Position numbers and translations under genes: made by a program
Notes under the pieces: generated by a model
Told to the model about the DNA's origin: nothing
The model's database searches: none
Seen by the model: only the letters and a program-made list of their open reading frames with translations
Shown here: positions 5,544 to 32,931 of the stretch, piece by piece
Numbering within the stretch: the first letter of the stretch is position 1
Layout: the number at the start of each line of letters is the position of its first letter
IMG/VR virus record: IMGVR_UViG_3300002061_000003
Origin: a virus
Direction: 5' to 3' (one strand)
Length of the DNA stretch: 64,000 nt

Positions 5544-5816
5544 ATGTCATCTCCTGTAAGCGCACTTGATGTGCGTGAACGTATTCTGCATGTCTTTAGT
5601 ATATACCCAAAGATCTCGCCGTCTATGCTCCAAATCAGTTTGAACTTACCCGCCAAAGATTGGCGTCCAGTTCTTGAAGAACTCATCACCGAAGATCAAG
5701 TTACACGTCAGTCACTTGTACATCTTACACCTACAGGCCGAAACCAATCCTATACAATCCTGACGTCCAACATTCTGACCGCAGAAGTGGAAACCGTTAA
5801 TGACGTTTCTAAGTGA
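5544..5816 (+). CDS. Small winged-helix-like DNA-binding protein
   Basis: 'ISPSMLQISLNLPAKDWRPVLEELITEDQVTRQ' has wHTH-like spacing; directly upstream of the primase. Confidence 0.5.
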   Translation: MSSPVSALDVRERILHVFSIYPKISPSMLQISLNLPAKDWRPVLEELITEDQVTRQSLVHLTPTGRNQSYTILTSNILTAEVETVNDVSK

Positions 5817-9418: not shown

Positions 9419-9960
9419 ACGCGGCAGCCAAACTTCCATTCCATGAACTAGCCTCTAAGTTAAAGCCTAACCATTTTCGTGGCACTCTTGTCTGTTTCGA
9501 TCCTGGTGAAACTACTGGGTTGGCCATATTCAGAAATGGGAAACTTGAAGAGACATCCCAGCTTATCACCAAAGACCTCGATCAAGGCACGAAAGCTGTC
9601 AACGACCTTTTTAACACCATTCACGGTTTCACTACCACAGACCCAGATGCTCTTGAATTGGGTTTGGGTGAGAACGTTAGAGTGGTTGCCGAAGATTATA
9701 AGGTCTATGGATGGAAAACAGACCAACATGCTTGGGCAGCTTTACATACACCTAAGTTTATTGGCTGCATTGTAGCTTTATGCCACATCCATGGCATTCC
9801 TTATCACATGCAGATGGCTCAGACAGCTAAAGGGTTCTGCACAGATGATAAGTTGAAAGCCTGGAACTATTACGACAAAGGTTTAAGACATGCTCGTGAT
9901 GCTGTACGTCATGGCTGTTATTATACCCTGTTTAACGAAGAGGATCACCCCGCAAATTAA
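9415..9960 (+). CDS. RuvC-like Holliday junction resolvase
   Basis: CFDPGETTG, VVAEDY and HARDAVRH acidic motifs of the RNase H-fold resolvases. Confidence 0.75.
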   Translation: MNAAAKLPFHELASKLKPNHFRGTLVCFDPGETTGLAIFRNGKLEETSQLITKDLDQGTKAVNDLFNTIHGFTTTDPDALELGLGENVRVVAEDYKVYGWKTDQHAWAALHTPKFIGCIVALCHIHGIPYHMQMAQTAKGFCTDDKLKAWNYYDKGLRHARDAVRHGCYYTLFNEEDHPAN

Positions 9961-9976
9961 TTTCAGTTGCCTATTA

Positions 9977-10014
9977 TTTTGACCATTGAGGTCATTCTAT
10001 TGCTGCTATATATT
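9977..10014 (+). promoter_or_regulatory. Promoter with TTTTGAC-N7-GTC element
   Basis: TTTTGACCATTGAGGTC; TTGAGG-N17-TATATT. Confidence 0.7.
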
Positions 10015-10033
10015 AATAGTGTAAGCAGCGAAA

Positions 10034-10438
10034 ATGGAAAACAATCTGATGGCTAAAGAATTCAAAGACTGGGATAAAAAATTTTCTAGGGCTCAAATCG
10101 AAGCATGTCGTGTTGAGTGGCTGGATCATAATCTTGCAGATGCTTTGACATCGTGGCATTTCGGCTATAAGCAACCTTCGATTGAAGGTGCTCGCTGGGC
10201 TGTCTATGAGGCTGATGGTTTTGAAGAATGGCAGCTGTTTAGGGTCTCTTTAAAAGGTTTGGATACAAGTCAGAAGCTTTCGATGTTGCATACTCGTTGG
10301 CAGATGTTTTGTGGCTTTGAGAAGGGTACTGTTGATCAGATGGCGAAGCTGGAAATTGAAACGGCTCGGATCTGGAATTATATCGGTGCGTTGCGTCGGG
10401 GTGGGCAGCTTAATGCTGAACTGGAAATCGTCAAGTGA
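10034..10438 (+). CDS. Conserved phage hypothetical protein
   Basis: 'WQLFRVSLKGLDTSQKL...NYIGALRRGG' pattern. Confidence 0.7.
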   Translation: MENNLMAKEFKDWDKKFSRAQIEACRVEWLDHNLADALTSWHFGYKQPSIEGARWAVYEADGFEEWQLFRVSLKGLDTSQKLSMLHTRWQMFCGFEKGTVDQMAKLEIETARIWNYIGALRRGGQLNAELEIVK

Positions 10439-10470
10439 TGGCGGAATTTAAATCAAGAAGGAAGAATACA

Positions 10471-10695
10471 ATGGCAATGTCTAAACGTGACATTATTGTC
10501 GCTCTCGTGAATGGTACAGGTGTATCAGACAACGCTGTCGTAAAGGTTGTGGATGCTATCAACCAGCTGAACGGCAATGAGAAAGCGACACTCTTCGGTG
10601 TGCCTGAGAATATCAAGGCTGCTGTGGATAAAGGTGCTGAAGCACTTACAGAGGCTGAAGAGCCTACAAGCAAGCCGACAAAATCGTCCAAATAA
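10471..10695 (+). CDS. Hypothetical protein
   Basis: AAGGAAG RBS before ATG 10471. Confidence 0.65.
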   Translation: MAMSKRDIIVALVNGTGVSDNAVVKVVDAINQLNGNEKATLFGVPENIKAAVDKGAEALTEAEEPTSKPTKSSK

Positions 10696-10696
10696 G

Positions 10697-10850
10697 TTAG
10701 CCTAACTCTTGGTGCTAATAGAGTGGACGTCGTATCCTACTGCATGTAGACCTGCTTCCAAGGGTCGATTCGGCCATATCCACTTCTAGGTTAAATGGCT
10801 TTACCTGACTTGACAGTTATACGGTAAAGCAGCAGCCAAACCTTTTTAAG
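10697..10850 (+). ncRNA. Candidate structured RNA (hairpin + three-way junction + long hairpin)
   Basis: Dense complementary segments: TTAGC/GCTAA, AGTGGA/TCCACT, CTAC/GTAG, GACC/GGTC, GCTTTACC/GGTAAAGC, AGGTT/AACCT. Confidence 0.4.
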
Positions 10851-12089: not shown

Positions 12090-12268
12090 TGGCTGGTAAA
12101 CAAACATTCTACGTGCATTACAACGGCCATAGCTGGTATGTGAAGACACGTGAATTCTTCGAGCAACAAGGTGGGTTTGAAGAAGAGTGGGGTAAGGCTT
12201 GGAGTCCAATCTTGGCCACCTCTATCGAGGATGCTCGTACCAAAGCTGAGGAGGCTGCTAATGCCTAG
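12089..12268 (+). CDS. Small conserved hypothetical protein
   Basis: TAATG coupling; 'YVKTREFFEQQGG...WG..W'. Confidence 0.65.
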   Translation: MAGKQTFYVHYNGHSWYVKTREFFEQQGGFEEEWGKAWSPILATSIEDARTKAEEAANA

Positions 12269-12665
12269 AATGTGGATGGTTCCAACCGAAGTTCTCTGCA
12301 GTCAGCATCTTGTTGGCGAGCATTATGAAACGCATATGATCTACGGAGGCTTAACCAAGAATCGTGGTAAAGGTGCTGGCCTTGTAAGATCATTGGCAAA
12401 TGCTGGAAAGGCCGAACTAGCACAGCTTCAAGAGCGTCATGATGCATTAGCTGATGAATTAATCTTCCGAGGTGGCAATCATAACTCTCCCCTTATCTTC
12501 GAATGGGAGATGTTCCAGGAAGCTCTTGAATTGCCTGACGTCAAAGTAGACGTAGAAGAATCGTTACGTGAACTCGAATCACGATGTCCTAAGTGTCGTG
12601 CAAACATAGCCAAATGGAGAGAAGCTGATGGCCAATACAGACCAAACAACTACGTCTACAAATGA
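12261..12665 (+). CDS. Pyrimidine-dimer DNA glycosylase / endonuclease V (DenV)-family protein
   Basis: N-terminal 'PRMWMVPTEVLCSQHLVGEHYETHM' and 'LQERHDALADELIFRGGNHNSP'. Confidence 0.65.
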   Translation: MPRMWMVPTEVLCSQHLVGEHYETHMIYGGLTKNRGKGAGLVRSLANAGKAELAQLQERHDALADELIFRGGNHNSPLIFEWEMFQEALELPDVKVDVEESLRELESRCPKCRANIAKWREADGQYRPNNYVYK

Positions 12666-13356: not shown

Positions 13357-14072
13357 TGGACGAGTTCGAAGAGCCAGTAACAAATCTTGAAGTCGGAGAC
13401 ATCGTTCGTAGGGTTAGAGGTTGGACGCCTCTAGCTGTAACCGATGTTCGCGGCATTCATGTTGAGGCTGCATATTGCGGTGAAACTTTTGGCACTGATT
13501 ATGTTAACCTGGAAGTGTATATGCGTCAGGATCTTATTCTTGTCGTAGATCCGCATAAAGAGCTTGCCAAGTGTGGGCAGCATTCTATGACTCCAGGTTG
13601 GCTACCTCGCCTCAACGACGAACAGCTCAATCAGCTCCAAAAGCAGGTTGAGAACCATAAACACTTTAACTCCAGCAACGGAAAGGGAACAGAAATGACA
13701 GCTAAACTTTATCAAACCGTAGGTGAGGATACACCTCGCTTCGGTACATATCTGGCTACCAACACTCTCGGCCAGATTGTCCTTGAAATGAAAGGCGCTA
13801 ATGCGGCTCCTGAAGCATTCGACAAAGATGCTATCGAAGAAGTACTGCCTTGGACTTTCCAAGCTCGCAACCTCTTCGCACAGAACGAACACTTCTCATT
13901 TACGGCTCGCAAAGACTCTGTAGCCAAAGGCGATATGCTTCTTGGTTCGATGGGTGTGGTCGAAGTGATCCAGGTGAATACCAAGTCTCGCAAGCATCAA
14001 GGTGCATTCACTGGCCGCAAGATTCTGACGGAAGCTATCGAAGCTCTGCCAGAAGACGTCATCGAAGACTAA
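13353..14072 (+). CDS. Hypothetical two-domain protein (possible internal start at 13696)
   Basis: ORF track; in-frame ATG at 13696 preceded by GGAAAGGGA. Confidence 0.65.
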   Translation: MMDEFEEPVTNLEVGDIVRRVRGWTPLAVTDVRGIHVEAAYCGETFGTDYVNLEVYMRQDLILVVDPHKELAKCGQHSMTPGWLPRLNDEQLNQLQKQVENHKHFNSSNGKGTEMTAKLYQTVGEDTPRFGTYLATNTLGQIVLEMKGANAAPEAFDKDAIEEVLPWTFQARNLFAQNEHFSFTARKDSVAKGDMLLGSMGVVEVIQVNTKSRKHQGAFTGRKILTEAIEALPEDVIED

Positions 14073-14098
14073 TACGAACACATTCCACGGAGGATCTA

Positions 14099-14500
14099 AT
14101 GAGTAAGCCCCCAACTTTCAAAGGTATTATCGTCCGTGGAATGTATCATCGGGGTGAATGGGCAGTAGCTATTGCTAAGGCTCTTCGCTCCGGTGAGTAT
14201 ATGATGGTTGAAAGGGAGCCGACAAATCCCTATGATGGCAATGCAATCAAAGTATTGGCACGAGAAGATGTTTTCGACAAGTTTACCTTTATTGGGTATA
14301 TTGGTCGAGAGTATGCAGCCCGGATAGCTCCGTGGATGGATTCTGGATGGTTCTTTAATGTCTCGGTTGAGAGGTTGATGAATGGGTATCCGATTGTAAA
14401 ATTGGAGCCCATGTTTCCAGATGAAAAGAAAGAAGAAGTCGGTGTCGAAGCAGAGCTCGACATTGTGCATAAACCTGAAAAAGAATTGGAAGACGCATGA
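14099..14500 (+). CDS. HIRAN-domain protein
   Basis: 'VRGMYHRG...VEREPTNPYDGNAIKV...IGYIGREYAARIAPWMD'. Confidence 0.85.
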   Translation: MSKPPTFKGIIVRGMYHRGEWAVAIAKALRSGEYMMVEREPTNPYDGNAIKVLAREDVFDKFTFIGYIGREYAARIAPWMDSGWFFNVSVERLMNGYPIVKLEPMFPDEKKEEVGVEAELDIVHKPEKELEDA

Positions 14501-14988
14501 ATCAAGTATTTGGCCCTAAACTCGGTTGGGATGATATTGAAGCACTGACAGACAATCTGGCTGATCAATGTTTGAACTCAGGTATTCAACCTGATATGAT
14601 TGTCGCTATTGCACGTGGTGGATTGATTCCAGCCACACAGTTAGCCCATAAGCTTGATGTAAGGCGTGTACGTAGCTTTCAGATGGTGTCGTATATCGAC
14701 GGCGTTCAGGGAGCTTTGGAACACATTGATTCGTCCCAAAACCTTATCGAAGAGATGGAACGCCCAAATGTGAATTGCGTTCTCTTTGTTGAAGACATCG
14801 TTGACACAGGTGCATCACTTCAATACTTGCGTAAGATGTTCACACTACCCCAGGGCTACAAGTGTGTGTCTGTATTCGCTTCCCTTACAGTCAAAAAGAA
14901 AGCACCGAAGGCTGATTGGCCTACGATGTATGCACATGTGTATCCCGAGGATGCATGGGTGACATTTCCGTGGGAGATGCCGAAGTAA
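14497..14988 (+). CDS. Type I purine phosphoribosyltransferase (Gpt/Xpt-like)
   Basis: IVAIARGGLIPA and the PRPP-binding VLFVEDIVDTGASL motif; C-terminal WVTFPWE. Confidence 0.85.
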   Translation: MNQVFGPKLGWDDIEALTDNLADQCLNSGIQPDMIVAIARGGLIPATQLAHKLDVRRVRSFQMVSYIDGVQGALEHIDSSQNLIEEMERPNVNCVLFVEDIVDTGASLQYLRKMFTLPQGYKCVSVFASLTVKKKAPKADWPTMYAHVYPEDAWVTFPWEMPK

Positions 14989-21204: not shown

Positions 21205-21405
21205 ATGAAAACGTTGACCCTCAGTCAGTTTGCCGCTTTGCATAACAAGTCAAAGCCAACCATTTCCAAGTATCTGAACAATGGGCAGATTTTAGGAATA
21301 CGAGTTGGACACGCTTGGCAAATCACGATCGAAGAGAGTGATAGGTATATGGCTGAGGGTCTTCTTCCTCTTCCTTCCGAAAACATCCAGCCCGGAGATT
21401 CTTAA
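21205..21405 (+). CDS. Excisionase-like helix-turn-helix protein
   Basis: 'LTLSQFAALHNKSKPTISKYLNNGQILGIRVGHAWQI'. Confidence 0.75.
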   Translation: MKTLTLSQFAALHNKSKPTISKYLNNGQILGIRVGHAWQITIEESDRYMAEGLLPLPSENIQPGDS

Positions 21406-21406
21406 G

Positions 21407-22168
21407 ATGACAAAAGCATTTGTCTTGCTTAGTGGTGGCATTGACAGCACAACCTGCCTTTTCGACGCACTCAAAAATTACGACGAGGTGGAAGCCGTCT
21501 CGATCAACTACGGCCAAAAACATTTCAAAGAAACCGAATTTGCCAACGCTACATGTAAAGCACAAGGTGTTGAGCATCGGATTCTGGACATTCGCGGATT
21601 GCTGGATGGCAATGGCGTCATGCTTACAGATGCCGAAACATCCATCCCATCTATCGACTACTCAGACATTGAGGGTGTTTCACCTACATATGTTCCATTC
21701 CGTAATGGTACGTTGTTGTCGATCATTGCAGCTCAAGCTCAGAAATGGGTGATGGCAGAAATCGATCGCCGCAAAGACGATATGAATGCTCATGACTATG
21801 CTGGCAAACATTTCACGGATCAAGAGCTTCTGGATATGATGCGCGATTCATCGGCGGTCTATTTGGGTGCTCATGCTGAGGACGCACATAATTGGGCTTA
21901 TCCTGATTGTACTCCAGAATTCAACGGTGCTATGGCGAATGCTATCTACACTGGCACCTACTACACAGTCCGCCTTCGCACGCCTCTGCTGAACATGACA
22001 AAGCAGGAAGTTATTGAATATGGCTATTCAATGGGTGTTGATTGGAAAAGCACGTGGAGCTGTTACGCTGGTGGTGAAAAGCATTGTGGCGAATGCCCTA
22101 CATGCCGTGCTCGCAAGCAAGCATTTATTGCTGCAGAGATTCCTGATCCAACTGAATACGCAGTTTAG
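21407..22168 (+). CDS. queC: 7-cyano-7-deazaguanine (preQ0) synthase
   Basis: LLSGGIDS, YGQKH, TYVPFRN, YPDCTPEF, TWSCY, HCGECPTC. Confidence 0.97.
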   Translation: MTKAFVLLSGGIDSTTCLFDALKNYDEVEAVSINYGQKHFKETEFANATCKAQGVEHRILDIRGLLDGNGVMLTDAETSIPSIDYSDIEGVSPTYVPFRNGTLLSIIAAQAQKWVMAEIDRRKDDMNAHDYAGKHFTDQELLDMMRDSSAVYLGAHAEDAHNWAYPDCTPEFNGAMANAIYTGTYYTVRLRTPLLNMTKQEVIEYGYSMGVDWKSTWSCYAGGEKHCGECPTCRARKQAFIAAEIPDPTEYAV

Positions 22169-22186
22169 GATTCCTCGTTTCCAGCG

Positions 22187-22217
22187 GCTGGAGGAGTAAC
22201 ATCCTCCGGCTTTTCTT
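22187..22217 (+). terminator. Intrinsic terminator between queC and queD
   Basis: GCTGGAGGA-GTAACA-TCCTCCGGC then TTTTCTT. Confidence 0.75.
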
Positions 22218-22230
22218 ATGGAGTGTCGTC

Positions 22231-22704
22231 ATGACCAAACCACGTTTTATCTCAACCAAAACCTATACACATTCTATAGGACTTTCTGCTGCATTTCGTC
22301 AGTGGCGCGCTGAATCTCATTGTAGGTTTATTCACGGGTACTCACTTGAAGTGCATGTCAAGTTTATCGAAAAAGCGGGACTTGATATTCGCAACTGGGT
22401 TGTCGATTTTGGCAGCCTTAAATCGTTCAAAGGCATGCTTGAAGATACCTTCGATCACAAAACACTTGTCGCTGAAGATGATCCATACCTTCAGAAGTTC
22501 ATGGATATGCAGTCTATGGGTTTGATGCAGGTTGTTAAAGTTCCCAACTGCGGTTGTGAAGCTTTCGCAGGTATGCTCTTTGAGTATGCTCAGATATGGC
22601 TCAAAGATAACGGTTATGGTTCCGTGGATGTCTTTGAGGTCGAAGTTCGGGAGCATGCAGCGAATTCAGCTATCGCCCGAAATCCAGCTTACCTCCATGC
22701 GTAA
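22231..22704 (+). CDS. queD: 6-carboxy-5,6,7,8-tetrahydropterin synthase
   Basis: 'HCRFIHGYS', 'VVDFGSLK', 'FDHKTL', 'EVEVREH'. Confidence 0.95.
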   Translation: MTKPRFISTKTYTHSIGLSAAFRQWRAESHCRFIHGYSLEVHVKFIEKAGLDIRNWVVDFGSLKSFKGMLEDTFDHKTLVAEDDPYLQKFMDMQSMGLMQVVKVPNCGCEAFAGMLFEYAQIWLKDNGYGSVDVFEVEVREHAANSAIARNPAYLHA

Positions 22705-22978
22705 GCTCATACCTACAGGTTATACTCATGTCAAAATGGGTGGACCTCCGACTGACTGGGCTGAGCTGATGATCCTGAATACGGATACACAAACGCTCGT
22801 ATACCAGGTAATAGAAGTCAACACTGAAGAGGGTTGGCTTGAGAGGCACGTTGATACTGTTCCCGACGGATCTCTTGATGAATGGCCTTCTGAACGATTA
22901 GAAGGTAATTTTCAAATTGTGCGAGCAGCTGAAATAGAAAGTACGTCACATGTCAGAAAAGAAGATTCCGCTGGTTGA
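22697..22978 (+). CDS. Hypothetical protein inside the que cluster
   Basis: ATG 22697 overlapping the queD stop; 93 aa. Confidence 0.6.
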   Translation: MRKLIPTGYTHVKMGGPPTDWAELMILNTDTQTLVYQVIEVNTEEGWLERHVDTVPDGSLDEWPSERLEGNFQIVRAAEIESTSHVRKEDSAG

Positions 22979-23756
22979 ATCTTTCGGCCCCACCATTCAA
23001 GGTGAAGGGGCTGTTATTGGTTATCAGACCATATTCTTACGTTTTGGTGGTTGTGATTACCGTTGCGGTAAATGCGATTCACTCCATGCTGTGCTTCCAA
23101 GCATGTTCAAGAACGCACCGAAGATGACAAATGCTGAGTTGCTTGAGCATACTCTTGAACTTGCTGGCCACTGTCATTGGATCACATTCTCAGGTGGCAA
23201 TCCCTGTATGTGGGATCTTACGGATCTTGTTGCAGGTCTGAAGCTTGCAGGTAAGATGATTGCCGTTGAGACTCAAGGCACTCTGCTTCCTGATTGGCTG
23301 GCTATGTGTGATATGGTTACCGTATCACCTAAAGGGCCTGGTATGGATGAAGTCTTTGAGCCTGAGAAGTTCGATGCTTTCGTCAAGAAGTTTCATCCAG
23401 TACTTGAACCCAAAGATCCGAGAATGCCAATGGCTCGCGGTGAAGACTGGCACTTTGGGTTCTCCGTTAAAGTCGTGGTATTTGACCAACGCGATTTGGA
23501 GTTCATGGTTGAGATCATGGAACGTTGGCCAACTACAGCTCAGGTGATGTTTGCCTCTATAGGTAACGTGGATCCTCCTGCCCCTGCAAAACGTCTGCAT
23601 GAAGGTGATGAACTGCCTCACATGGAGTTCGTTGAACAAACCCTGAACAACTATGAACTACTGGCACGTGAGATCTGGGAAGATCCTCGCTGCTCACCTG
23701 TTCGTGTTCTACCTCAACTTCACACCCTTCTCTGGGGTAACAAACAAGGCGTCTGA
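22950..23756 (+). CDS. queE: 7-carboxy-7-deazaguanine synthase (radical SAM)
   Basis: TIQGEG, FLRFGGCDYRCGKCDS (CxxxCxxC), TFSGGNP, ETQGT, VSPK, LPQLH. Confidence 0.95.
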   Translation: MSEKKIPLVESFGPTIQGEGAVIGYQTIFLRFGGCDYRCGKCDSLHAVLPSMFKNAPKMTNAELLEHTLELAGHCHWITFSGGNPCMWDLTDLVAGLKLAGKMIAVETQGTLLPDWLAMCDMVTVSPKGPGMDEVFEPEKFDAFVKKFHPVLEPKDPRMPMARGEDWHFGFSVKVVVFDQRDLEFMVEIMERWPTTAQVMFASIGNVDPPAPAKRLHEGDELPHMEFVEQTLNNYELLAREIWEDPRCSPVRVLPQLHTLLWGNKQGV

Positions 23757-23757
23757 T

Positions 23758-24381
23758 ATGACTGACCAAAGACCTAAAGCTCCGACATTACCTTTCAATA
23801 CCATCATGTCATCGGATGATATGGTTGGTGCTATTGAAGGTGTGGAGCAAGCACTTGATTTTGCAATTCCGAAATGGAACGAAAACCCATCTACAGAAAA
23901 CACTGCCACACGCTTTATGAAGTATCTGGCAGAGTTTACGCAGCCAATCGATATGGACAAGATCTTTGGGTCTACGTTCGAAGATCCAGCTGATCACCCT
24001 CCCATGATCATCCAACATCCAATCCCGTTCCGAATGGTTTGCGAACATCATCTGTTACCCGCTGTAGGGGTGGCTGCCTTGGGATACGTGCCACACAAGA
24101 GAGTCTTAGGGCTTTCCAAGTTGACACGCCTGGTAGATGCTGTAGGCGTTGAACAGCCTTCGCTGCAAGAACATCGTGCTAACCGTATCATGGATTTGAT
24201 GAATCAGCATCTTGAACCTAAAGGTGTTATGCTGGTTATCAAGTCTCAACACGGTTGTATGGCTTGTCGCGGTGTTAACGTGAGGGGCGTTGATACCACT
24301 ACTTCTCATGTGTCAGGTGTATTCCGTGACAACCCAACAGCTCGTGCTGAGTTCTTGGCTTTGATCCAAGGTAACATGTAA
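23758..24381 (+). CDS. folE: GTP cyclohydrolase I
   Basis: TATRF, VCEHHLLP, GLSKLTRLV, LQE, HGCMACRGV, TTTS, RAEFL. Confidence 0.97.
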   Translation: MTDQRPKAPTLPFNTIMSSDDMVGAIEGVEQALDFAIPKWNENPSTENTATRFMKYLAEFTQPIDMDKIFGSTFEDPADHPPMIIQHPIPFRMVCEHHLLPAVGVAALGYVPHKRVLGLSKLTRLVDAVGVEQPSLQEHRANRIMDLMNQHLEPKGVMLVIKSQHGCMACRGVNVRGVDTTTSHVSGVFRDNPTARAEFLALIQGNM

Positions 24382-24572
24382 TGGCTACGATTACGCTTAC
24401 CGAAGAACAGCACGGCGAAGCAGTGAATTACCTCGAACAAGCACGTGAAGCACTGGAGAATGCCGAAACATTGCTTGCTAACCGCACTATTGATACCGAC
24501 GAACTGATTCAAGACCTTCAGGAAGTTGCTCAGCAGTGCTCTAATTGCCACAAAGTGGTAGGAGAAGTTTAA
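24381..24572 (+). CDS. Small helical hypothetical protein
   Basis: TAATG coupling on both sides; CSNC near the C-terminus. Confidence 0.6.
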   Translation: MATITLTEEQHGEAVNYLEQAREALENAETLLANRTIDTDELIQDLQEVAQQCSNCHKVVGEV

Positions 24573-25318
24573 TGGCTAAATTTGCACCTGTGGTTCCGAT
24601 CCCAGTCGCACAAGCATATCGTGAAGCTGGCATGCTGGGTGATTACCAGTTGTTGCTGGCTCATGATGTTATCAAGCGTCCAGGTGATTATGCTCAAACG
24701 TATTCACACAACCAGTGGATTATCATGGACAACTCTGTCATCGAATTGGGTTATCCCCTTTCAGAAGACGAGATGCGTGAAGCTATTGGTGTTGTGCATG
24801 CATCAGTTTTTGTCTTGCCCGATGAATTGTTGGACAAAGATCAAACAATCCTGAAGACGTTCGAGGCTTTGAATACTTGGGGGAACTTGATCACCGATTC
24901 AACCAAAGGTATGGCTGTTCCTCAAGGCACTACATTTGACGAATGGGTTGAATGTGTAGAAGCCTTCGCACAGATCCGTGAAATTGATTGGATTGGTATT
25001 CCACGCAATGTCAAAGAAAAGCTGGGTACTTCTCGTGTGAAGGCCGCAGAGATCGTTCAAACCGTATGTCCCGATAAGAAAATTCACATGCTTGGATTCA
25101 GCGATGACATTCAGGATGATGTTGCAGCAACTCGCGTCGGTGGCGCTGTTATGGGTATCGACTCCGCTGTGCCGTCTCGGATGGGAATGCGTGACCAGAA
25201 AGTTATCACCCTAGCCAATCCTGATCATTCACCTCGGGGTGATTGGTGGGATAACCCAGGCGAAGTTAATGATCTGGCAATTACCAATGTAACGGTTTTC
25301 CGTTCTTGGTTGACATAA
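24572..25318 (+). CDS. dpdA: TGT-fold transglycosylase, DpdA-like (inserts 7-deazaguanine into DNA)
   Basis: TIM-barrel strands with TGT-equivalent residues: IIMDNS, VLPDE, AVPQG, IGIP, IHMLG, GIDSAVP; directly downstream of folE. Confidence 0.75.
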   Translation: MAKFAPVVPIPVAQAYREAGMLGDYQLLLAHDVIKRPGDYAQTYSHNQWIIMDNSVIELGYPLSEDEMREAIGVVHASVFVLPDELLDKDQTILKTFEALNTWGNLITDSTKGMAVPQGTTFDEWVECVEAFAQIREIDWIGIPRNVKEKLGTSRVKAAEIVQTVCPDKKIHMLGFSDDIQDDVAATRVGGAVMGIDSAVPSRMGMRDQKVITLANPDHSPRGDWWDNPGEVNDLAITNVTVFRSWLT

Positions 25319-25467
25319 TGTAAAACCTTCCATTGGTGATGGGAGGTATTTGAAAGGCTTAACCAGCCGGGTCTGTGTTGGCGACCTATTAGTTCAGCAT
25401 TAGAGATGCAGCTATGAATGCACGGGTAGGTGGAAGGCCTACACCCTTAGCAGCGATAGGATAGAAC

Positions 25468-27918
25468 ATGACTCCGATGGAAATACAAGCACTAGCCCCA
25501 GGTAAGAAAATTGCTCAAGGCGGTTACGGTAATCCCAAAGCTTCAATCGTATTCGTGGGCGAATCTCCAACAGCTGCAGAATTAGTCAAAAATGAAGCCA
25601 GTAAAGCTGTGCTAAAAGTTCTCGGAGATGTCTTTCCAGACTCATTCGATGCCGAGAACTTTTACTACATCAATGCGGTTCCATATCTCGTACCTAAAAC
25701 CAAAGACACTAAACGTAATACCGAGCTGACTGAAAAAGCTGCAATGGCTTGCCATAAATATATTACCGACGAACTTGCAAAGCATCCCCGAAAGATTATT
25801 GTATGCTTAGGTAATACAGCTATGTGGGCAGTGAATAATGACATCACTACACGCATTACACGTATTCGTGGACAAGTATTTGATTCACCCTTAGCCGAGC
25901 ATGGTATCTTAGCATCTGTACACCCATCCTTCTTACTTCGTGGTGGTGGTTCATATACTAAGTTCAAAAGAGACATCAACTATGCACTGGATATTGCACG
26001 AGGTGTACCCCGCAAAGTATGGGATCAACCCAACTATGAAGTCTCACGGGATGAACAAGACGTAAAGGCATTCATTGATGTCACGTTCCTAGCGGCGGAA
26101 AGACTGAATGATTTCGATCTTGGGGCGGATATTGAAACGGGTGGCTTTGATCACATGGATGATGAAGTTCTTTGTCTTGGTTGGTGTGTTGATCCCGGCA
26201 TGGTATATATTGCTCAGGAAGAGCATTTAGAAGCCCTCCATCATCGTGACTTCATGGTTCCGCGTTTACTTGGCGGTGTTTTTAATTGGGTCTGGCATAA
26301 CGGTAAGTTTGACGTTAAGTTCATGCGTACTCAAGGACATCTAAAGTCTGGTGTGGATCATGATACTATGCTCATGTCATACACAATGGAAGAGCGTGGC
26401 GGATTTCATGATCTTGACCAAGTAGCCTCTGATGAGCTTGGCGCACCCTATCACAAGGATATGCTTGAGGAATATCTACCAAGCAAGAAGTCATCTTATA
26501 GGGTTATTCCTAAACCTGTTTTACATGAGTATGCTGCATATGACGTATCGAAAACGAAAGGTATGCATACTCAGATGCTTAAACGCATCGAAGCCGATTC
26601 CAAAAACAAAAAACTATACCACCGAGTATTACTTCCAGCATCTGAACTCTTGTCAGAAGTGGAAGAGAATGGTATGCTTGTCGATATGGATAAGCGGGCT
26701 GAGAATGTAACCTACTTTGAAAACATCATGGCTGAGCACGCCGAAGCTTTGAATGCCATTGCTCTTGAGATCAACCCTGGTGCATTCTATAAGACTTCAG
26801 GTCCTAAGAGAGATGGTGGTGGACGTATCATTAAGGGCATCAATCCTAACAGCCCTAAACAGATCGGGGACCTGCTTTACAATCAACTCCGTCTAGCCAA
26901 AACCAATAAAGGTACTGGAGCCGATGTTCTTGAAAAATTGCCAGCACACCCCGCAGTTACCGCACTTCAGAAGCACCGCAAAGCCGCTAAAGCTTTCGGC
27001 ACTTATGTTAAGCCCTTGCCAGATCAAGTCTCTTCCGATGGACGAGTGCATTCAACTTATCTTATCCATGGTACTGCAACAGGCCGTCTCTCATCTCGCG
27101 GACCAAATATGCAAAACCAACCTCGCGATCCACGGATCAGAGGACAGTTTATTGCCGCAGAAGGCCATATGCTCTGCGAGATGGATTTGGATCAGGCTGA
27201 ATTGCGGTGTCTCGCAGCTCTGTCTGGAGATGAAGCCCTTTGCCATATCTATGAAACCGCAGGTCTATCTCTCCACAAAGTCGTTTCCAAAGAGATTTGG
27301 GGAGATGATTGGGTAGAGAGATATGCTCTAGACCTTCCAGGCAATGCGGATTATGATCAGGCCAAAGAAGAATACATGAGAACGAAGGCTTTGAACTTCG
27401 GTATTGTGTATGGCCGTGAAGCAAATTCCATTGCACAAGAATTTGAAATACCTACCGAAGAAGCTCAGCGTATGATTGATGGCTGGGCTAATCAATTTCC
27501 AACAGCCTGGAAGTTTATCGGTAAATGCCGTAATGCTCCTATCAAAGGGCAAAACCTGACAACTCCGTTCGGCCGTCGAAAGCGTGCTGGGGTCATCAGT
27601 CGTGAGAAGATTCGGGATCTTCAAAATGAAGCTTCCAACTTTCCTCACCAGTCGATTGCATCAGACATCACTTTGATGTCAGCAGTTAAAGTTCGTCCAT
27701 GGTTGAAAGAGCGTGGAATTAAGATCGTTAACCTTGTGCATGACGCTATCATTGTTGAATATCCGGATGATCATGATCTGTTCATTGAGATGGCCAACCA
27801 TGTAACTACCGAAATGGAAAAGACTCCGATAGAATGGGGCATTGATCGGATACCGTTCTCTGCTGATGCTAAAACAGGAAAACGTTGGGGCGATCTGAAA
27901 GACACGCCATTCAAATAA
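25468..27918 (+). CDS. polA: Family A DNA polymerase with N-terminal UDG-like domain and 3'-5' exonuclease
   Basis: UDG fold (VFVGESP, NAV, LGNTA, HPSFLLR); Exo I/II/III (DIET, HNGKFD, YAAYD); TGRLSS, DLDQAELR, KALNFGIVYG, VHD. Confidence 0.95.
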   Translation: MTPMEIQALAPGKKIAQGGYGNPKASIVFVGESPTAAELVKNEASKAVLKVLGDVFPDSFDAENFYYINAVPYLVPKTKDTKRNTELTEKAAMACHKYITDELAKHPRKIIVCLGNTAMWAVNNDITTRITRIRGQVFDSPLAEHGILASVHPSFLLRGGGSYTKFKRDINYALDIARGVPRKVWDQPNYEVSRDEQDVKAFIDVTFLAAERLNDFDLGADIETGGFDHMDDEVLCLGWCVDPGMVYIAQEEHLEALHHRDFMVPRLLGGVFNWVWHNGKFDVKFMRTQGHLKSGVDHDTMLMSYTMEERGGFHDLDQVASDELGAPYHKDMLEEYLPSKKSSYRVIPKPVLHEYAAYDVSKTKGMHTQMLKRIEADSKNKKLYHRVLLPASELLSEVEENGMLVDMDKRAENVTYFENIMAEHAEALNAIALEINPGAFYKTSGPKRDGGGRIIKGINPNSPKQIGDLLYNQLRLAKTNKGTGADVLEKLPAHPAVTALQKHRKAAKAFGTYVKPLPDQVSSDGRVHSTYLIHGTATGRLSSRGPNMQNQPRDPRIRGQFIAAEGHMLCEMDLDQAELRCLAALSGDEALCHIYETAGLSLHKVVSKEIWGDDWVERYALDLPGNADYDQAKEEYMRTKALNFGIVYGREANSIAQEFEIPTEEAQRMIDGWANQFPTAWKFIGKCRNAPIKGQNLTTPFGRRKRAGVISREKIRDLQNEASNFPHQSIASDITLMSAVKVRPWLKERGIKIVNLVHDAIIVEYPDDHDLFIEMANHVTTEMEKTPIEWGIDRIPFSADAKTGKRWGDLKDTPFK

Positions 27919-27998: not shown

Positions 27999-28277
27999 AT
28001 GAAAACCCTAGAACAGCGCACTCAAGCGTATTGGAACGTATCATCCAGATGGAATGGACGTTCGAACAACAAGAAACCACTGCGCACTTGTGATGCTTTG
28101 CGGGCTATTGGGAGTGTTACAGCTGTGACCTTCAATCAACGTCCATTAGCTACACGCGCAGCAATTCTGCAGAAGGCAATTATTTGCCATGGAAGCAGCA
28201 AACGCAAACGTCTTGCAGATAAAGGTGTTCATGCTGAACCTGCAGCCGTCGCAAGTTTGATTCAAGCTGAGGTATAA
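27999..28277 (+). CDS. Basic hypothetical protein
   Basis: GAGGA RBS; first gene after the promoter. Confidence 0.65.
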   Translation: MKTLEQRTQAYWNVSSRWNGRSNNKKPLRTCDALRAIGSVTAVTFNQRPLATRAAILQKAIICHGSSKRKRLADKGVHAEPAAVASLIQAEV

Positions 28278-28510
28278 TGTCCGATCCAAAATCATTCACT
28301 GAAAAGCATATGGATAAGCTAACCCAGCCTATCTATGGCACACCCACTGGTAGGCTTTCAACAAGCCAACCTGAAATGCAAGAACTTCCAGGTCCTCGTG
28401 GAATTAACGAAAGCTTTATGGAAGAACCTCTATCACTCGCCGAAATCGATTATGCTCAGGCAGAGCTTCGAATCATGGCATTCCTCTCAGGAGAAGATAT
28501 CAATGACTGA
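28277..28510 (+). CDS. Mini-protein made of the PolA palm motifs (fragment of a family A polymerase)
   Basis: GTPTGRLSTSQPEMQELP...EIDYAQAELRIMAFLSGED; GAGGT RBS; TAATG and ATGACTGA couplings. Confidence 0.7.
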   Translation: MSDPKSFTEKHMDKLTQPIYGTPTGRLSTSQPEMQELPGPRGINESFMEEPLSLAEIDYAQAELRIMAFLSGEDIND

Positions 28511-30815
28511 CCAATTGGTTGCAGACATCCACCCATCACTTGACGAATTCACTATGCCGTTGATTCGTGATGTCTGGGCAAAGAAATACAAGTGGGGCGA
28601 TGAACAGTCCATGTTCGATACTATCAACCGTGTTGTTGATGGTGTTTATGCTAAAGATGGAAGCGGTGAAGCACAGCAACAAATGCGTTACTTTATGTTG
28701 GCAGGTCTTTGGATGCCCGCAGGTCGTATTCTCGCTGGTGCAGGTACTTCGAAAAAAGTAACGTTGATGAATTGCTACGTCAATGGTACAGTGCCTGATT
28801 CAATGGAGGGAATTCATACCGCTATCGGGAATGTGATGTTTACACTTCAGCAAGGTGGTGGTATTGGGACAGACTTCTCAACGCTCCGTCCAGCGGGAGC
28901 CGCATTGAAGCGTACTGGTAAAGGTTCTGCAGCTTCTGGACCAATTCCATTTATGACGCAATGGGATGCAACTTCGAAGACTGTAAAGTCAGCAGGTGAT
29001 CGTCGTGGTGCTATGATGGCTACTATGTCAGATTGGCATCCTGATCTACCCGCATTCATCCAATGCAAACGTGAACGTGGGGTGATGGAGCAATTCAACA
29101 TTTCCGTTTTGGTTTCTGATGCCTTTATGGAAGCCGTAGAAGCCGATGCGATGTGGAGTCTCCACTTTCCTGCTGAGCCCGCTGAAGAGCGTGCATCTGA
29201 ATTAGTGGAACAAGATTTTGAAAAAGATGGCGTTACCTATTACGTCTATTCCGTTTGGAAGGCTCGTGACCTTTGGAATATGATCATGGAGAACACTTAT
29301 GATTATGCTGAGCCTGGTGTCATTTTCATTGACCGTGTTAACGACCTTAACAATCTACAGTATTGTGAGACTATCCGTTGTACTAACCCATGTGGAGAAC
29401 AACCGCTCCCACCTCATGGCGCTTGCGATCTTGGCGCTGTCAATCTATCCCGTCTGGTCGATGATCCTTTCACGTCTAACGCCGATGTTAATTGGGATAT
29501 GTTATCGAGGGTTGTCGCAGCTGGAGTGCGTTTCCTGGATAATGTCATCGACGTAACCCAATACCCGCTTGAAGAGCAAGCACAAGAACAATACGATAAG
29601 CGTCGTGTAGGTTTGGGTATTAGCGGTTTGGCTGATGCGTTGGCTCAAATGAAATTGGTATATGGCAGCAATGAAGCAGTTGCTATGACAGACAAGATCA
29701 TGAAAGCCATTGCCGAAGCTGCTTATGAAGCATCAGCTATGTTGGCTCAAGAACGTGGAGCTTTTCCTCTCTTCGATGCCGACAAAATCAATCGCCATTT
29801 CCTGGAGCAGCTTGATCCTCGAATTACGGATATGGTGAATGATCTGGGTCTACGTAATGGTGTTCTCCTAACCATTGCACCTACTGGCACCACTTCTTTG
29901 GTGTATGGGAACATTTCATCGGGGCTGGAGCCTAACTTCGCACATAGCTATAACCGGAAAGTGTTCTCATCCAACAACGAACATCAGGCTGAGACTTACG
30001 AGGAGGTTAAGACATATTTGTATAGCCTGCATCAGCGTCACGGTGATGGCTATAAAAACCCTGAAAAGCTTTTGGATCTGGACTACATGATCACAGCTCA
30101 AGAGTTGCCGGTTGATGCTCATCTACGTATGCAAGGTGCATGTCAGAAATGGGTTGATGCTTCTATTTCCAAAACCATTAACTTGCCTGAAGACATCACC
30201 TTTGGAGATTTTCAGGCCGTATATCTTCGGGCTTACGCTCTAGGGTGTAAAGGATGTACGACTTATCGCCCTTCCGATGTTCGAGGTTCTGTGCTTTCAC
30301 TTGCCTCAGACAAACCTGAAGAAGTCAAAGAAGGCCGCCCAGAAGCTTTGCCTGGCCTTACGTATAAGATCAAATGGCCTTCTTGGAATGCTTCCATCTT
30401 CTTAACCATCAACCATTACACTGACAACACACCTTGGGAAATTTTTATCCAGTCCAAAGATGCTCGTCATCAAGAATGGGTGACAGCTTTGACGGTGATG
30501 ATCTCAGCGTTGATGCGTTCTGGGATGGATGTCCAATTCATTGTCAAAGAATTGCAGGCTATCAAATCGACACATGATGGTGCTTTCTTGGAAGGTAAGT
30601 ATTATGGTTCGTTGCTTGCCCGTATCGGTGAAGTATTGGAACGTCATTTTCAATCTGAAGGTGTTATTGCAGTTGAGCCTTCAACCGAACCTGTAGAGGT
30701 AAATACTAAGGTTGAGATTCGGGGAGATGTTTGCCCTGAGTGTGAAGCCCCTTCAATGGTAATGGCAGAAGGTTGCATGAAATGCACTAACTGCGGTTAC
30801 TCCAAATGCGGTTAG
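28503..30815 (+). CDS. nrdJ: Class II (B12-dependent) ribonucleotide reductase
   Basis: PAGRIL, LMNCYV, GGGIGTDFS, TNPCGEQPL, CDLGAVNL, IAPTGTTS, GCKGCTTYR; C-terminal CPEC..CTNCGYSKC ribbon. Confidence 0.95.
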   Translation: MTDQLVADIHPSLDEFTMPLIRDVWAKKYKWGDEQSMFDTINRVVDGVYAKDGSGEAQQQMRYFMLAGLWMPAGRILAGAGTSKKVTLMNCYVNGTVPDSMEGIHTAIGNVMFTLQQGGGIGTDFSTLRPAGAALKRTGKGSAASGPIPFMTQWDATSKTVKSAGDRRGAMMATMSDWHPDLPAFIQCKRERGVMEQFNISVLVSDAFMEAVEADAMWSLHFPAEPAEERASELVEQDFEKDGVTYYVYSVWKARDLWNMIMENTYDYAEPGVIFIDRVNDLNNLQYCETIRCTNPCGEQPLPPHGACDLGAVNLSRLVDDPFTSNADVNWDMLSRVVAAGVRFLDNVIDVTQYPLEEQAQEQYDKRRVGLGISGLADALAQMKLVYGSNEAVAMTDKIMKAIAEAAYEASAMLAQERGAFPLFDADKINRHFLEQLDPRITDMVNDLGLRNGVLLTIAPTGTTSLVYGNISSGLEPNFAHSYNRKVFSSNNEHQAETYEEVKTYLYSLHQRHGDGYKNPEKLLDLDYMITAQELPVDAHLRMQGACQKWVDASISKTINLPEDITFGDFQAVYLRAYALGCKGCTTYRPSDVRGSVLSLASDKPEEVKEGRPEALPGLTYKIKWPSWNASIFLTINHYTDNTPWEIFIQSKDARHQEWVTALTVMISALMRSGMDVQFIVKELQAIKSTHDGAFLEGKYYGSLLARIGEVLERHFQSEGVIAVEPSTEPVEVNTKVEIRGDVCPECEAPSMVMAEGCMKCTNCGYSKCG

Positions 30816-30823
30816 GATAGACT

Positions 30824-31402
30824 ATGCAACTTTGCGATTGGGAAATAAGCCAGTTATGCGATTCTTCTAACGTAGCTGACGGTTCACGCTGGAGACCTAT
30901 GTTGGATCCTTTCGTGATGGAGAAATCTCGGATGGGATCTCTTTCTTACGGTCTTGGCCATTTCGGCTATGATATCAGGTTGGGTGATGCACTTGTAATA
31001 CCTGAGCGTGTTATGAGGCCGATAGATCCAGCAACTGAAACAGATCTCAGCACGTTACCCTATACTAACTTTGACTTGGAAACTCGGGCAGCAGTTCTCG
31101 AGCCAGGTCAAATGGTGATGGGTGGTACTTTGGAATACTTTTGCATTCCAGCTAATATCGTTGCTGTGGTTCACGATAAGAGTACGTTAGCCCGTTTAGG
31201 GCTAGCAGTTCAAAACACGGTTCTCGAACCTGGATGGAATGGTTTCCTCACAATGGAAATTACCAATCATGGGGTGAATGACATTGTCTTGAGTTCTGGA
31301 ATGCCTATTGCTCAAGTAATCTTTTACCAAGGTGAATTCCCTGATAGTGTATATGAGGGTAAGTACCAGAATCAACGTAAAGGGGAGGTTGCTCGATCAT
31401 GA
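30824..31402 (+). CDS. dcd: dCTP deaminase
   Basis: SYGLGHFGYDIRL, DKSTLARLG, LEPGWNGFLTMEI, IAQVIF, YEGKYQNQ. Confidence 0.92.
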   Translation: MQLCDWEISQLCDSSNVADGSRWRPMLDPFVMEKSRMGSLSYGLGHFGYDIRLGDALVIPERVMRPIDPATETDLSTLPYTNFDLETRAAVLEPGQMVMGGTLEYFCIPANIVAVVHDKSTLARLGLAVQNTVLEPGWNGFLTMEITNHGVNDIVLSSGMPIAQVIFYQGEFPDSVYEGKYQNQRKGEVARS

Positions 31403-31965
31403 GTAAACTAGGTATGAAGTTGATGATTGTGGGCTATGCGCGTCACGGTAAAGATACTGTGGCAGATTTGCTTACAGAGCATTATGACATGCATTTTGTT
31501 TCGTCATCCTATTTTATGGCTGAACGTGTTGTACTGCCTAAGATGCAAAAAGCTTGGCAACGATATCGTTCGGCTAGCCCTATCAAGGTTGAAAAACCTC
31601 CATTCCCTGAATATGCGGATCTTGACGAAGCCTATGCTGATCGTGTAAATCACCGGCAATTCTGGTTTGAGGCTATCAAAGAAGCCAACGAAGACGATCC
31701 GGCTTTTCTGTCTACAGCCATCTTTGCGGAATTTGATCTGTATGTAGGGAATCGTAACCCTCGTGAATTTCATGCAGCCAAATGTATGGGTCTTTTCGAC
31801 TTTTCAATCTGGGTGGATGCTTCTGAGCGTATGCCTCCCGAGGGTGAAGAGTCTAATGGCATTCAACCTTGGATGACAGATTATATTCTGGACAACAACG
31901 GTACTCCAGAACATCTGGAACGCAACCTACATCGTCTGATGGCTACCTTAGCCAAGAAGCGATAA
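31399..31965 (+). CDS. Deoxynucleoside monophosphate kinase
   Basis: P-loop IVGYARHGKDTVA; GNRNPREF; WVDASER; located among nucleotide-metabolism genes. Confidence 0.75.
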   Translation: MSKLGMKLMIVGYARHGKDTVADLLTEHYDMHFVSSSYFMAERVVLPKMQKAWQRYRSASPIKVEKPPFPEYADLDEAYADRVNHRQFWFEAIKEANEDDPAFLSTAIFAEFDLYVGNRNPREFHAAKCMGLFDFSIWVDASERMPPEGEESNGIQPWMTDYILDNNGTPEHLERNLHRLMATLAKKR

Positions 31966-32034
31966 CCCATGCATTGGTATCTACCTTACGCATACTACCT
32001 ATATCAACTATACAAAGAAGAAGGAAACAAAGAA

Positions 32035-32931
32035 ATGGATGACACCACTTCAGCGGGAGAAGAGATGGTTCAGCTCGAGCGTCCCAAGTGCGCCGCTATG
32101 GATGATCTGATGGCTCAAGGTACGATCCCTGTACTCGATAAGGGTATGATCCGCGTCGTCGATTATATGGGTGATGATGCTGCTGTCGCTCAAGCCGCCC
32201 GGACATCATATGGAACTGGAACGAAGACCGTCAATGAAGATCGTGGGCTGATTCGTTATCTGATGTCACACTGGCATACCACACCTTTTGAAATGTGCGA
32301 AATCAAGCTGCATGTGAAACTGCCAGTCTTCGTCGCCCGTCAGTGGGTGCGTCATCGGACCGCGAACATCAATGAGTATTCGGCTCGTTACTCGGTGCTG
32401 GATCGTGAATTTTACTTCCCTGAGCCTGAGCAGATTGCAGCACAATCACAATCGAATGCTCAAGGGCGTGAAGAGGTTTTTGATCGTGCTCAGGCACTCG
32501 ATGTTCGGCAGTGGATTATGGATCATTCCGAATTGTCGTACAACCTCTACAGCAATCAGCTTGACGATGGGTTAGCTCGGGAATTAGCTCGGATGAATCT
32601 GCCTCTCAATATCTATACCCAGTGGTACTGGAAAGTAGATGTCCACAACTTTATGCACTTCTTGCGACTCAGAGCTGATCCCCATGCGCAATACGAAATT
32701 CGTGTGTATGCCGAAGCTCTTTGCGAGATCTTGAAAGTTTGGATGCCTGTCACATACGAAGCATTCGAAGACTACCGCCTCAATGCGCTTCAACTGTCTA
32801 GCATGGAATATGATCTGGTGCAGCAGATGATTGACAATGCAGGTAAGGTCGATCCGGCATCTGAATCTTGGACAAAGCTTTCTAAGCGCGAGAAGAAGGC
32901 TTTTGAGGATAGGTTTCAGCCTATCGTATAA
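32035..32931 (+). CDS. thyX: Flavin-dependent thymidylate synthase
   Basis: [42 protein letters not shown]. Confidence 0.97.

Follow-up and report, generated by a model that had tools for sequence, protein, structure and literature searches.

Does a phage operon that joins 7-deazaguanine synthesis genes to a transglycosylase-fold gene and an atypical DNA polymerase gene put a modified guanine into the phage DNA, and if so, by which enzyme, at which stage, and with which product? We pursued this question in an uncultured phage (IMG/VR record IMGVR_UViG_3300002061_000003), in a stretch of 64,000 nucleotides (nt), here called the window, which covers nearly the whole of a 64.2-kb contig and whose replication and nucleotide-metabolism module forms a single + strand run at 15-33 kb. 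At 21407-27918 (+), genes for QueC, QueD, a 93-amino-acid (aa) open reading frame (ORF), QueE, FolE, a 63-aa ORF, a 248-aa protein with the fold of a tRNA-guanine transglycosylase (TGT), and a UDG-exonuclease-PolA protein follow one another head to tail. This order had been proposed in a first-pass annotation made from the sequence alone, and all of its genes, from queC to the UDG-PolA gene, are there on the + strand at the positions listed below.

Sequence comparison places the 248-aa protein in the DpdA3 family, and the DNA of this phage is very probably modified with a 7-deazaguanine that counters host restriction. The explanation that we prefer, with a probability of roughly 0.55, is a 7-deazaguanine DNA-modification module embedded in the replication operon of a lytic phage, in which a DpdA3 enzyme would swap the base on DNA after synthesis. 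A megablast search with the region against 50,697 phage records returned no close DNA relative. Its elements are the following, with L numbers denoting related loci from the survey described further on:

21407-22168, + strand: QueC, preQ0 (7-cyano-7-deazaguanine) synthase, stand-alone, without a GATase domain (Pfam QueC, E 1.2e-56; TIGR00364, 159.1 bits, cutoff 150.3)
22231-22704, + strand: QueD, 6-carboxytetrahydropterin synthase (Pfam PTPS, E 2.2e-15; PHROG 2389, QueD-like, E 1.4e-39)
22697-22978, + strand: orphan ORF of 93 aa that overlaps the stop of queD and the start of queE (homologues in L005, L008, and L009)
22950-23756, + strand: QueE, radical-SAM 7-carboxy-7-deazaguanine (CDG) synthase (TIGR03365, E 5.6e-59, 199.6 bits; PHROG 2076, QueE-like, E 1e-32)
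23758-24381, + strand: FolE, GTP cyclohydrolase I (Pfam GTP_cyclohydroI, E 1.9e-42)
24381-24572, + strand: orphan 63-aa acidic helical-hairpin ORF, abutting the start of the dpdA3-like gene (kept in L005 and L025)
24572-25318, + strand: DpdA3-family transglycosylase, as assigned by hhalign, AlphaFold2, and Foldseek, 248 aa, a minimal TGT-type (beta/alpha)8 barrel
25319-25467, + strand: spacer of 149 nt between the dpdA3-like gene and polA
25468-27918, + strand: PolA with N-terminal UDG-superfamily and 3'-5' exonuclease domains (Pfam DNA_pol_A, E 1.8e-66; UDG, E 6e-14; exo1, E 6.8e-6)

Family, fold, and active site of the transglycosylase

The family assignment comes from two converging comparisons. 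A profile of 38 family sequences aligned in hhalign with CGPG_00065 of Cellulophaga phage phiST, the founding member of the DpdA3 subfamily published in 2023 (PMC10516641), at 97.5% probability (E 7.5e-12, 222 columns), and in tblastn searches the window protein and phiST DpdA3 both retrieved the same Bacillus phage (BSP7/BSTP) genes; we therefore take the window protein to be a DpdA3-family member, at 23% identity to its phiST counterpart and with the DN, PD, PQG, and DS motifs in common. Predicted structures point the same way, in that the second-ranked match in BFVD, a database of predicted viral structures, is a 259-aa phiST protein (E 5e-14, TM 0.74/0.71) that agrees with CGPG_00065 in length.

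Comparison with the other DpdA families gave no such result. The family profile scored 0.4% against the DpdA4 of HVTV-1 (HVTV1_69) and 0.1% against the DpdA1 of phage 9g in hhalign, with no significant match to E. coli TGT; the Pfam model of bacterial DpdA (PF23859) matched one of the 38 members, at E 0.16; and neither the Pfam TGT model (PF01702) nor, at E≤10, any TGT among the PDB sequences was matched. The window protein itself has no significant Pfam, NCBIfam, or PADLOC-type annotation, only a subthreshold match to DUF6610 (PF20314, DpdA4; 16.9 bits, E 0.005, cutoff 27) of a kind that recurs, comparably weak, in 10 of the 38 members. The similarity to TGT is thus at the level of the fold, and the relationship is visible only through the fold and through DpdA3. 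The family is large: a word-indexed search found 589 homologues, and a profile search of 1.84 billion cluster representatives (50% identity) found 4,634 at E≤1e-3 and 3,303 at E≤1e-10. None of these ~4,600 clusters is Pfam annotated, and the best 150 of the profile matches are stand-alone proteins of 223 to 304 aa.

The first-pass annotation had called the enzyme divergent, pointing to a DNS rather than a DSG in its first catalytic loop. That loop is real (D53-N54-S55), and D53 and N54 are invariant in the 38 homologues; it is also the normal DN motif of the DpdA3 family, with DN(S) kept in phiST DpdA3, and the protein is no undescribed variant, as it falls within a family that was already published (PMC10516641).

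AlphaFold2, run on the 38-sequence alignment, modeled an eight-stranded (beta/alpha)8 barrel (pLDDT 95.7, pTM 0.92), for which the best solved matches found by Foldseek in the PDB are TGTs (E 4e-9); VIA realignment to residues 39-359 of Z. mobilis TGT gave Z 16.4 and a root mean square deviation (rmsd) of 3.5 over 230 residues. In an independent scan of 48,161 representatives, archaeosine TGT came first (Z 15.5); bacterial DpdA 7ui4, a DNA preQ0 insertase, followed at Z 15.3, bacterial TGT at Z 15.2, and Cap10 at Z 14.4, with generic phosphate-binding TIM barrels just below (Z≤14.3). D53, D84, Q118, and D197, all invariant in the 38 homologues, occupy the C-terminal ends of strands 3, 4, 5, and 8 in the AlphaFold2 model, and their phiST DpdA3 counterparts in the hhalign alignment are Asp, Asp, Gln, and Asp, respectively. 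The active site of TGT and bacterial DpdA comprises an acid/base Asp, a base-edge Asp, a Gln (TGT) or His (DpdA), and a nucleophile Asp (PMC10164549), and by their position in the model the four residues would take these roles in that order. A nonsignificant hhalign alignment to E. coli TGT pairs VLPD84 with the Asp of "IFDEC" and VPQ118G with "IIQG"; together with the strand positions, it suggests that D53, D84, and D197 are equivalent to TGT D102, D156, and D280. Because no cysteine is invariant in the family, a Zn site is absent.

The barrel is minimal. Strand 8 (residues 193-198) and the last helix (234-247) are separated by ~35 residues, a place where bacterial DpdA has the 128-residue Ins8 that forms a DNA-binding surface (PMC10164549). 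The bacterial enzyme of the Salmonella Dpd system (PDB 7ui4) shares the TGT-type barrel (Z 15.3, rmsd 3.6, 230 residues) and the three active-site Asp positions with the window protein, but it is larger, at 413 aa, its Ins1 and Ins8 build up a basic crescent that binds DNA, and its function depends on the DpdB ATPase (PMC10164549), whereas the window protein lacks Ins1 and Ins8, and no DpdB was seen.

preQ0 synthesis and the two orphan reading frames

The pathway that would supply the base is complete: FolE, QueD, QueE, and QueC are all present and intact, FolE and QueD above the Pfam gathering thresholds, QueC above the preQ0-synthase equivalog cutoff (TIGR00364), and QueE as a full-length match 6.5 bits short of the TIGR03365 cutoff (206.1). 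We moved the FolE start to the ATG at 23758, just past the queE stop; the L005 orthologue has 199 aa. Pfam scans of the larger ORFs of the window found no QueF, GATase-QueC, DpdL, DpdM, or DpdN, and PSI-BLAST seeded with HVTV-1 QueF, phiST DpdL, and 9g Gat-QueC found no QueF, DpdL, or Gat-QueC in the window, where the 9g Gat-QueC seed aligns with QueC through its QueC half only. The earlier report that QueF and GAT-QueC are missing is thereby upheld; for ArcS, likewise reported missing and likewise not found, the Pfam scans of the larger ORFs were the only coverage. With none of QueF, GATase-QueC, DpdL, DpdM, and DpdN found, the predicted base is therefore preQ0, and the simplest prediction for the nucleoside is 2'-deoxy-preQ0 (dPreQ0), with dADG as the alternative. 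This agrees with the product that the first-pass annotation had predicted from a preQ0 synthesis operon with a TGT-fold enzyme. Its further suggestion of an undescribed variant pathway with a different product finds no echo in the window, where nothing points to another product. dPreQ0 has not yet been reported for a DpdA3 phage, and the combination of DpdA3 with a stand-alone QueC and no QueF is one whose predicted product, heavy dPreQ0 substitution, is likewise unreported so far.

The two orphan ORFs do not look enzymatic. The 93-aa ORF has a 42% identical counterpart in L005 and was found in its three close relatives only; it has no Pfam or PHROG match, and its Atlas matches are unnamed phage clusters and a weak DUF3297 lead. 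The 63-aa ORF, kept in two relatives only, gives a generic helical hairpin as its Atlas model, and a complex prediction with the DpdA3-like protein scored 0.00, which counts neither for nor against binding. Directly 5' of the DpdA3-like gene, several other loci have strongly acidic helical ORFs of 60 to 70 aa that differ in sequence; in others, the place is taken by a 60-aa ORF rich in Cys and Trp and unrelated to these.

Related loci and the adjoining polymerase gene

We compared the window with related loci in a set of 85, made up of the window, 80 IMG/VR loci from a degenerate-pattern scan, two ENA contigs, Brevundimonas phage StAshley, and Weizmannia phage Youna2, with ORFs labeled by seeded PSI-BLAST. 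The DpdA3-like gene lies 5' of the PolA gene in all 85, with no labeled gene in between and, in about half, a gap of at most 30 nt; PolA has an N-terminal UDG-like domain in every locus. The order SNF2-Exo-Sak4-SSB-QueC-QueD-QueE-(FolE)-DpdA3-PolA is kept throughout the clade, and the linkage of the DpdA3-like gene to FolE, QueD, and QueE holds, as far as the ends allow, in the window and in 85 of the 85 loci. We also looked for a fusion of DpdA3 to PolA and found none in the set.

Members of the clade differ in their accessory genes. In three loci (L050, L075, and L084), at ~9600-10800, QueC is replaced by a homologue of DpdL, the CDG decarboxylase, which by sequence predicts DNA containing 7-deazaguanine itself (dDG), the phiST configuration within the clade of the window. 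Two of them, L075 and L084, have a DUF1599-like ORF ("nucleotide modification associated domain 1") directly 5' of the DpdA3-like gene. A homologue of the window's phosphoribosyltransferase (PRTase) adjoins FolE in StAshley and also occurs in seven IMG/VR loci. A gene for a PF18909 protein (dGTP diphosphohydrolase N-terminal domain, MazZ-like) stands between the ribonucleotide reductase (RNR) gene and thyX in the close relatives L005 (16537-16893) and L006 (16088-16612). We considered a MazZ for the window as well and rejected it: the 188-aa gene between the dCTP deaminase family gene and thyX is not homologous to these PF18909 proteins and is dNMP-kinase-like.

Among cultured relatives, the Brevundimonas phages MaInes and StAshley are double-stranded DNA (dsDNA) phages with a GC content of ~50%; in the study that isolated them, all contigs of the winter "ssDNA" virome, from which dsDNA had been removed with a dsDNA-specific DNase, aligned to these two phages (PMC10070969). 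The survival of their contigs is consistent with nuclease-resistant modified DNA and is circumstantial.

The phiST system shares with the window a minimal TGT barrel of ~250-260 aa, linked FolE, QueD, and QueE genes, and a polymerase gene downstream, and it shares with some members of the clade a DpdL homologue in place of QueC. The window differs in having an intact stand-alone QueC, no QueF, DpdL, or DpdN, and no MazG, which phiST has, and its polymerase is a UDG-fused PolA, whereas that of phiST is a split Pol III alpha. In phiST (L004), this Pol III alpha is encoded by two ORFs at 41629-45229 that are absent from the annotation of the record. A P-loop domain of the kinase type (AAA_18, E 9.4e-7) was recognized in CGPG_00066 (46381-46860), which lies directly 5' of phiST DpdA3 and was called unknown in the original description (PMC10516641). 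The Queuovirinae DpdA1 systems of Escherichia phages 9g, CAjan, and Seurat share the order of que genes, DpdA, and polymerase and the making of preQ0 from GTP, and 9g also has DUF669, ATPase, SF2 helicase, and ligase genes in the same region. The DpdA1 of 9g, in contrast, is a 317-aa protein with no detectable similarity to the window family (hhalign 0.1%), and the Gat-QueC of that phage makes dG+, with 25-27% of G replaced according to the citation in PMC8265664.

Is the polymerase part of the modification? The first-pass annotation had suggested that the nonconsensus PolA may be adapted to the modified G, and the data do not support such an adaptation. Motif B of the window PolA reads Y-M-R-T-K, without the Arg usual four residues before the Lys (Y636). 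At this position, 74 clade PolAs have R in 27 cases, K in 22, Y in 11, L in 10, and I in 4, and we ruled out Y636 as an adaptation on the grounds of this variation. The Arg two residues before the Lys, present in 67 of the 74, is shared by an Oceanotoga phage PolA (32% identity) whose gene has no que or dpdA genes around it. UDG-PolA fusions are found as well in Pseudomonas and Stutzerimonas phages without a DpdA3-like match. The adjacency of transglycosylase and polymerase genes stands, being constant across the survey, but it is not particular to this polymerase: it holds for the split Pol III alpha of phiST and for phage 9g, whose polymerase has no BLASTP similarity to the window PolA. Because DpdA adjoins unrelated polymerases and the motif B residue varies in the clade, a specially adapted polymerase is not supported, and the adjacency argues for coexpression with replication instead.

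The spacer between the two genes has no Rfam match at E≤1 and an unexceptional folding energy (z-score -1.35, not significant), and we rejected an RNA element on these grounds; promoter and terminator scans gave chance-level results. A GC-rich hairpin of 10 bp opens the spacer and UAUUUG comes next, which together may be a weak terminator. L005 has no such spacer, its dpdA3-like gene directly abutting polA.

Both further genes to which the first-pass annotation drew attention, the PRTase gene and the 77-aa "mini-PolA," exist. The latter repeats a part of PolA that runs from the TGRLS/PN-Q-P region through motif A, with 46.7% identity to PolA residues 531-590. Its motif A, DYAQAELR, is nearer the canonical form than the DLDQAELR of the main gene, and it is as tightly fitted between its neighbors as a genuine gene, the ATG overlapping the stop of the 92-aa ORF and the stop overlapping the RNR start. 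Youna2 has a separate 188-aa PolA fragment 3' of its polA. The genes around the region are these:

14497-14988, + strand: purine (xanthine-guanine type) PRTase, accessory gene (Pfam Pribosyltran, E 1.8e-14; best PDB and NCBIfam matches are xanthine-guanine PRTases [XGPRT]/purine PRTases)
start 15090, + strand: ATP-dependent ligase
start 16517, + strand: SNF2 helicase
start 18596, + strand: PD-(D/E)XK exonuclease
start 19725, + strand: Sak4-like ATPase
start 20752, + strand: DUF669 single-stranded DNA-binding protein (SSB)
21205-21405, + strand: putative helix-turn-helix protein, 66 aa, directly 5' of queC (kept in 31 of the 85 loci; the L006 counterpart has Pfam HTH_17)
27999-28277, + strand: 92-aa ORF after polA (homologues in 22 related loci)
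28277-28510, + strand: 77-aa "mini-PolA" ORF (Pfam DNA_pol_A positions 115-173, E 5.8e-10)
28503-30815, + strand: RNR large chain with a TSCPD domain (Pfam Ribonuc_red_lgC, E 1.7e-125; TSCPD, E 7.2e-11)
30824-31402, + strand: dCTP deaminase family protein (Pfam DCD, E 3.4e-27; TIGR02274, 104.2 bits, cutoff 92.8)
31399-31965, + strand: P-loop protein resembling dNMP kinase, 188 aa (PHROG 38514, E 1.9e-54; PHROG 139, dNMP kinase, E 2.9e-13)
31969-32931, + strand: ThyX, flavin-dependent thymidylate synthase (Pfam Thy1, E 6.2e-56)

The longer RNR ORF from the ATG at 28335 is probably misstarted, as it aligns with the L005 orthologue from residue 62; we moved the start to the ATG at 28503, which yields the conserved N terminus. 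The dNMP-kinase-like gene has in addition a weak Pfam DNMK match over its N-terminal Walker A region. Farther upstream, the early region encodes a Fic/DOC protein (3053-3721), a DUF6456 protein (3724-4446), RNase H (4448-5038), and a DUF3854 protein with a weak P-loop match (5800-8199), followed by a T4 endonuclease V-like pyrimidine-dimer glycosylase (12150-12665) and a HIRAN-domain protein (13850-14500).

Proposed base exchange, on DNA or on the nucleotide

In the preferred reading, FolE, QueD, QueE, and QueC would convert GTP to the free base preQ0, and the DpdA3-family enzyme, which keeps the three active-site Asp residues, would swap guanine for preQ0 by the double-displacement mechanism of TGT, after which the virion DNA would carry dPreQ0 or, if QueC releases the amide, dADG. 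The exchange would follow DNA synthesis, as in the published model, with the gene coexpressed with the polymerase gene downstream. Replacement would probably be high, because all three DpdA3 phages analyzed so far have 100% of their G replaced (PMC10516641), and DNA modified in this way would resist guanine-dependent restriction. Since each exchange frees one guanine and FolE consumes GTP, the XGPRT-like PRTase is most simply seen as a guanine salvage enzyme, most likely recycling the released base to GMP and so refilling the GTP that FolE drains. The analysis itself establishes what the genes are, the fold and family of the enzyme, its conserved residues, and the synteny; from these we infer the activity, the substrate (DNA or nucleotide), the product, and the degree of replacement.

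Several points weigh against an exchange on DNA. We know of no other phage base substitution in which a postreplicative enzyme achieves complete replacement. The short connection between strand 8 and the last helix leaves the protein without the DNA-binding Ins8 of bacterial DpdA, and the protein is acidic (pI 4.7, net charge -14), although we set charge aside as a clue to the substrate, since E. coli TGT is acidic too and the property does not discriminate. No DpdA3 has been shown to act on DNA, heterologous tests having failed, and the same authors thought DpdA3 unlikely to use preQ0 (PMC10516641); the clade of the window has an intact QueC.

The strongest competitor, which we hold to be possible but doubtful, moves the exchange ahead of replication and onto the free nucleotide. 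Here dGMP and preQ0 would give dPreQ0-MP and guanine, and the phage dNMP-kinase-like protein and the host NDP kinase would raise the product to dPreQ0TP for incorporation by the phage PolA; in a variant, the PRTase would make a preQ0 ribonucleotide that the phage RNR then reduces. Such a route would account for the 100% replacement of G in all assayed DpdA3 phages and for the ADG nucleoside in the cytoplasm of infected cells (PMC10516641), and it suits a minimal barrel with neither Ins8 nor a Zn nucleic-acid-binding subdomain. A PRTase, an RNR, and a dNMP-kinase-like protein are all encoded in the window, the transglycosylase gene has a polymerase gene after it in every one of the 85 loci, and genes of the PF18909, MazG, or DUF1599-like types are present in 30 of the 85 and in 12 of the 28 loci whose flanks reach 9 kb or more on each side. 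Directly 5' of DpdA3, phiST encodes the P-loop kinase-like protein, then DpdL and MazG, and in Youna2 a P-loop protein is encoded directly 5' of the DpdA3-like gene. An analogy is offered by the 2-aminoadenine system of cyanophage S-2L, in which PurZ, MazZ, and DatZ bring about complete replacement via the dNTP pool, with a MazZ-type dGTP pyrophosphatase (PMC8342488); L005 and L006 resemble it in carrying PF18909 genes in the same module, whereas the window has no PurZ, DatZ, or MazZ homologue.

Against the nucleotide route stands the fact that every characterized enzyme of the TGT superfamily uses a polymer or a protein conjugate, none being known to use a mononucleotide. There is also no recognizable dGTPase in the window that would exclude dGTP. 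No special polymerase would be needed, as family A polymerases already accept 7-deaza-dGTP. The idea that the PRTase may belong to a variant pathway, raised in the first reading of this DNA, holds to the extent that the PRTase and the dNMP-kinase-like gene fit a prereplicative route, but of the 28 loci whose flanks reach 9 kb or more on each side, only 16 have a pyrophosphatase, kinase, or PRTase gene within ~10 kb, the other 12 having none of them. MazG, moreover, also accompanies DpdA1 in phages whose DNA is only partly modified (PMC6893657, PMC8265664). We would extend the proposal to the family only tentatively, as a minority view: DpdA3-type minimal TGT barrels may be nucleotide-level base exchangers (dGMP plus 7-deazaguanine base to 7-deaza-dGMP plus guanine) and not DNA transglycosylases. 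If this were true, 7-deazaguanine would be a prereplicative, whole-genome replacement of G, written by the polymerase encoded downstream, contrary to the published postreplicative model.

It is unlikely that the final base is another one, either because QueC stops at the amide (dADG) or because the 93-aa or the 63-aa ORF further modifies the inserted base. dADG does occur in Campylobacter DpdA3 phages (PMC10516641), and the two small ORFs do lie within the operon; they are, however, confined to a handful of close relatives and match no fold or family typical of enzymes, QueC exceeds the cutoff for preQ0 synthases, and no QueF, GATase, DpdL, DpdM, or DpdN was found in the window. That the protein modifies tRNA, the genes only boosting host queuosine precursors and the phage DNA staying unmodified, is highly improbable: TGTs are its best solved structural matches, but it lacks their Zn subdomain and other tRNA-recognition insertions as well as any Pfam TGT match, its family ties are with DpdA3 of phages in which modification of the DNA is complete, and its gene is always within the replication module, 5' of the polymerase gene.

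7-Deazaguanine DNA is a major phage counterdefense against restriction enzymes and some CRISPR nucleases. What the window adds is a known strategy, that of DpdA3 (2023), in a very large, unstudied, and unannotated phage clade. Cultured relatives exist in the Brevundimonas phages StAshley (vB_BpoS-StAshley) and MaInes, Weizmannia phage Youna2, and Bacillus phage BSP7, and the question of a DNA or a nucleotide substrate is therefore directly testable. DpdA3 enzymes reach far beyond the few phages that defined the type, which is fixed in a large clade of ~50-70-kb phages, 5' of a UDG-fused PolA gene. Since the preQ0 pathway that accompanies it there is complete, one would expect phages in whose DNA dPreQ0 substitution is heavy or full, a kind of genome unreported so far.

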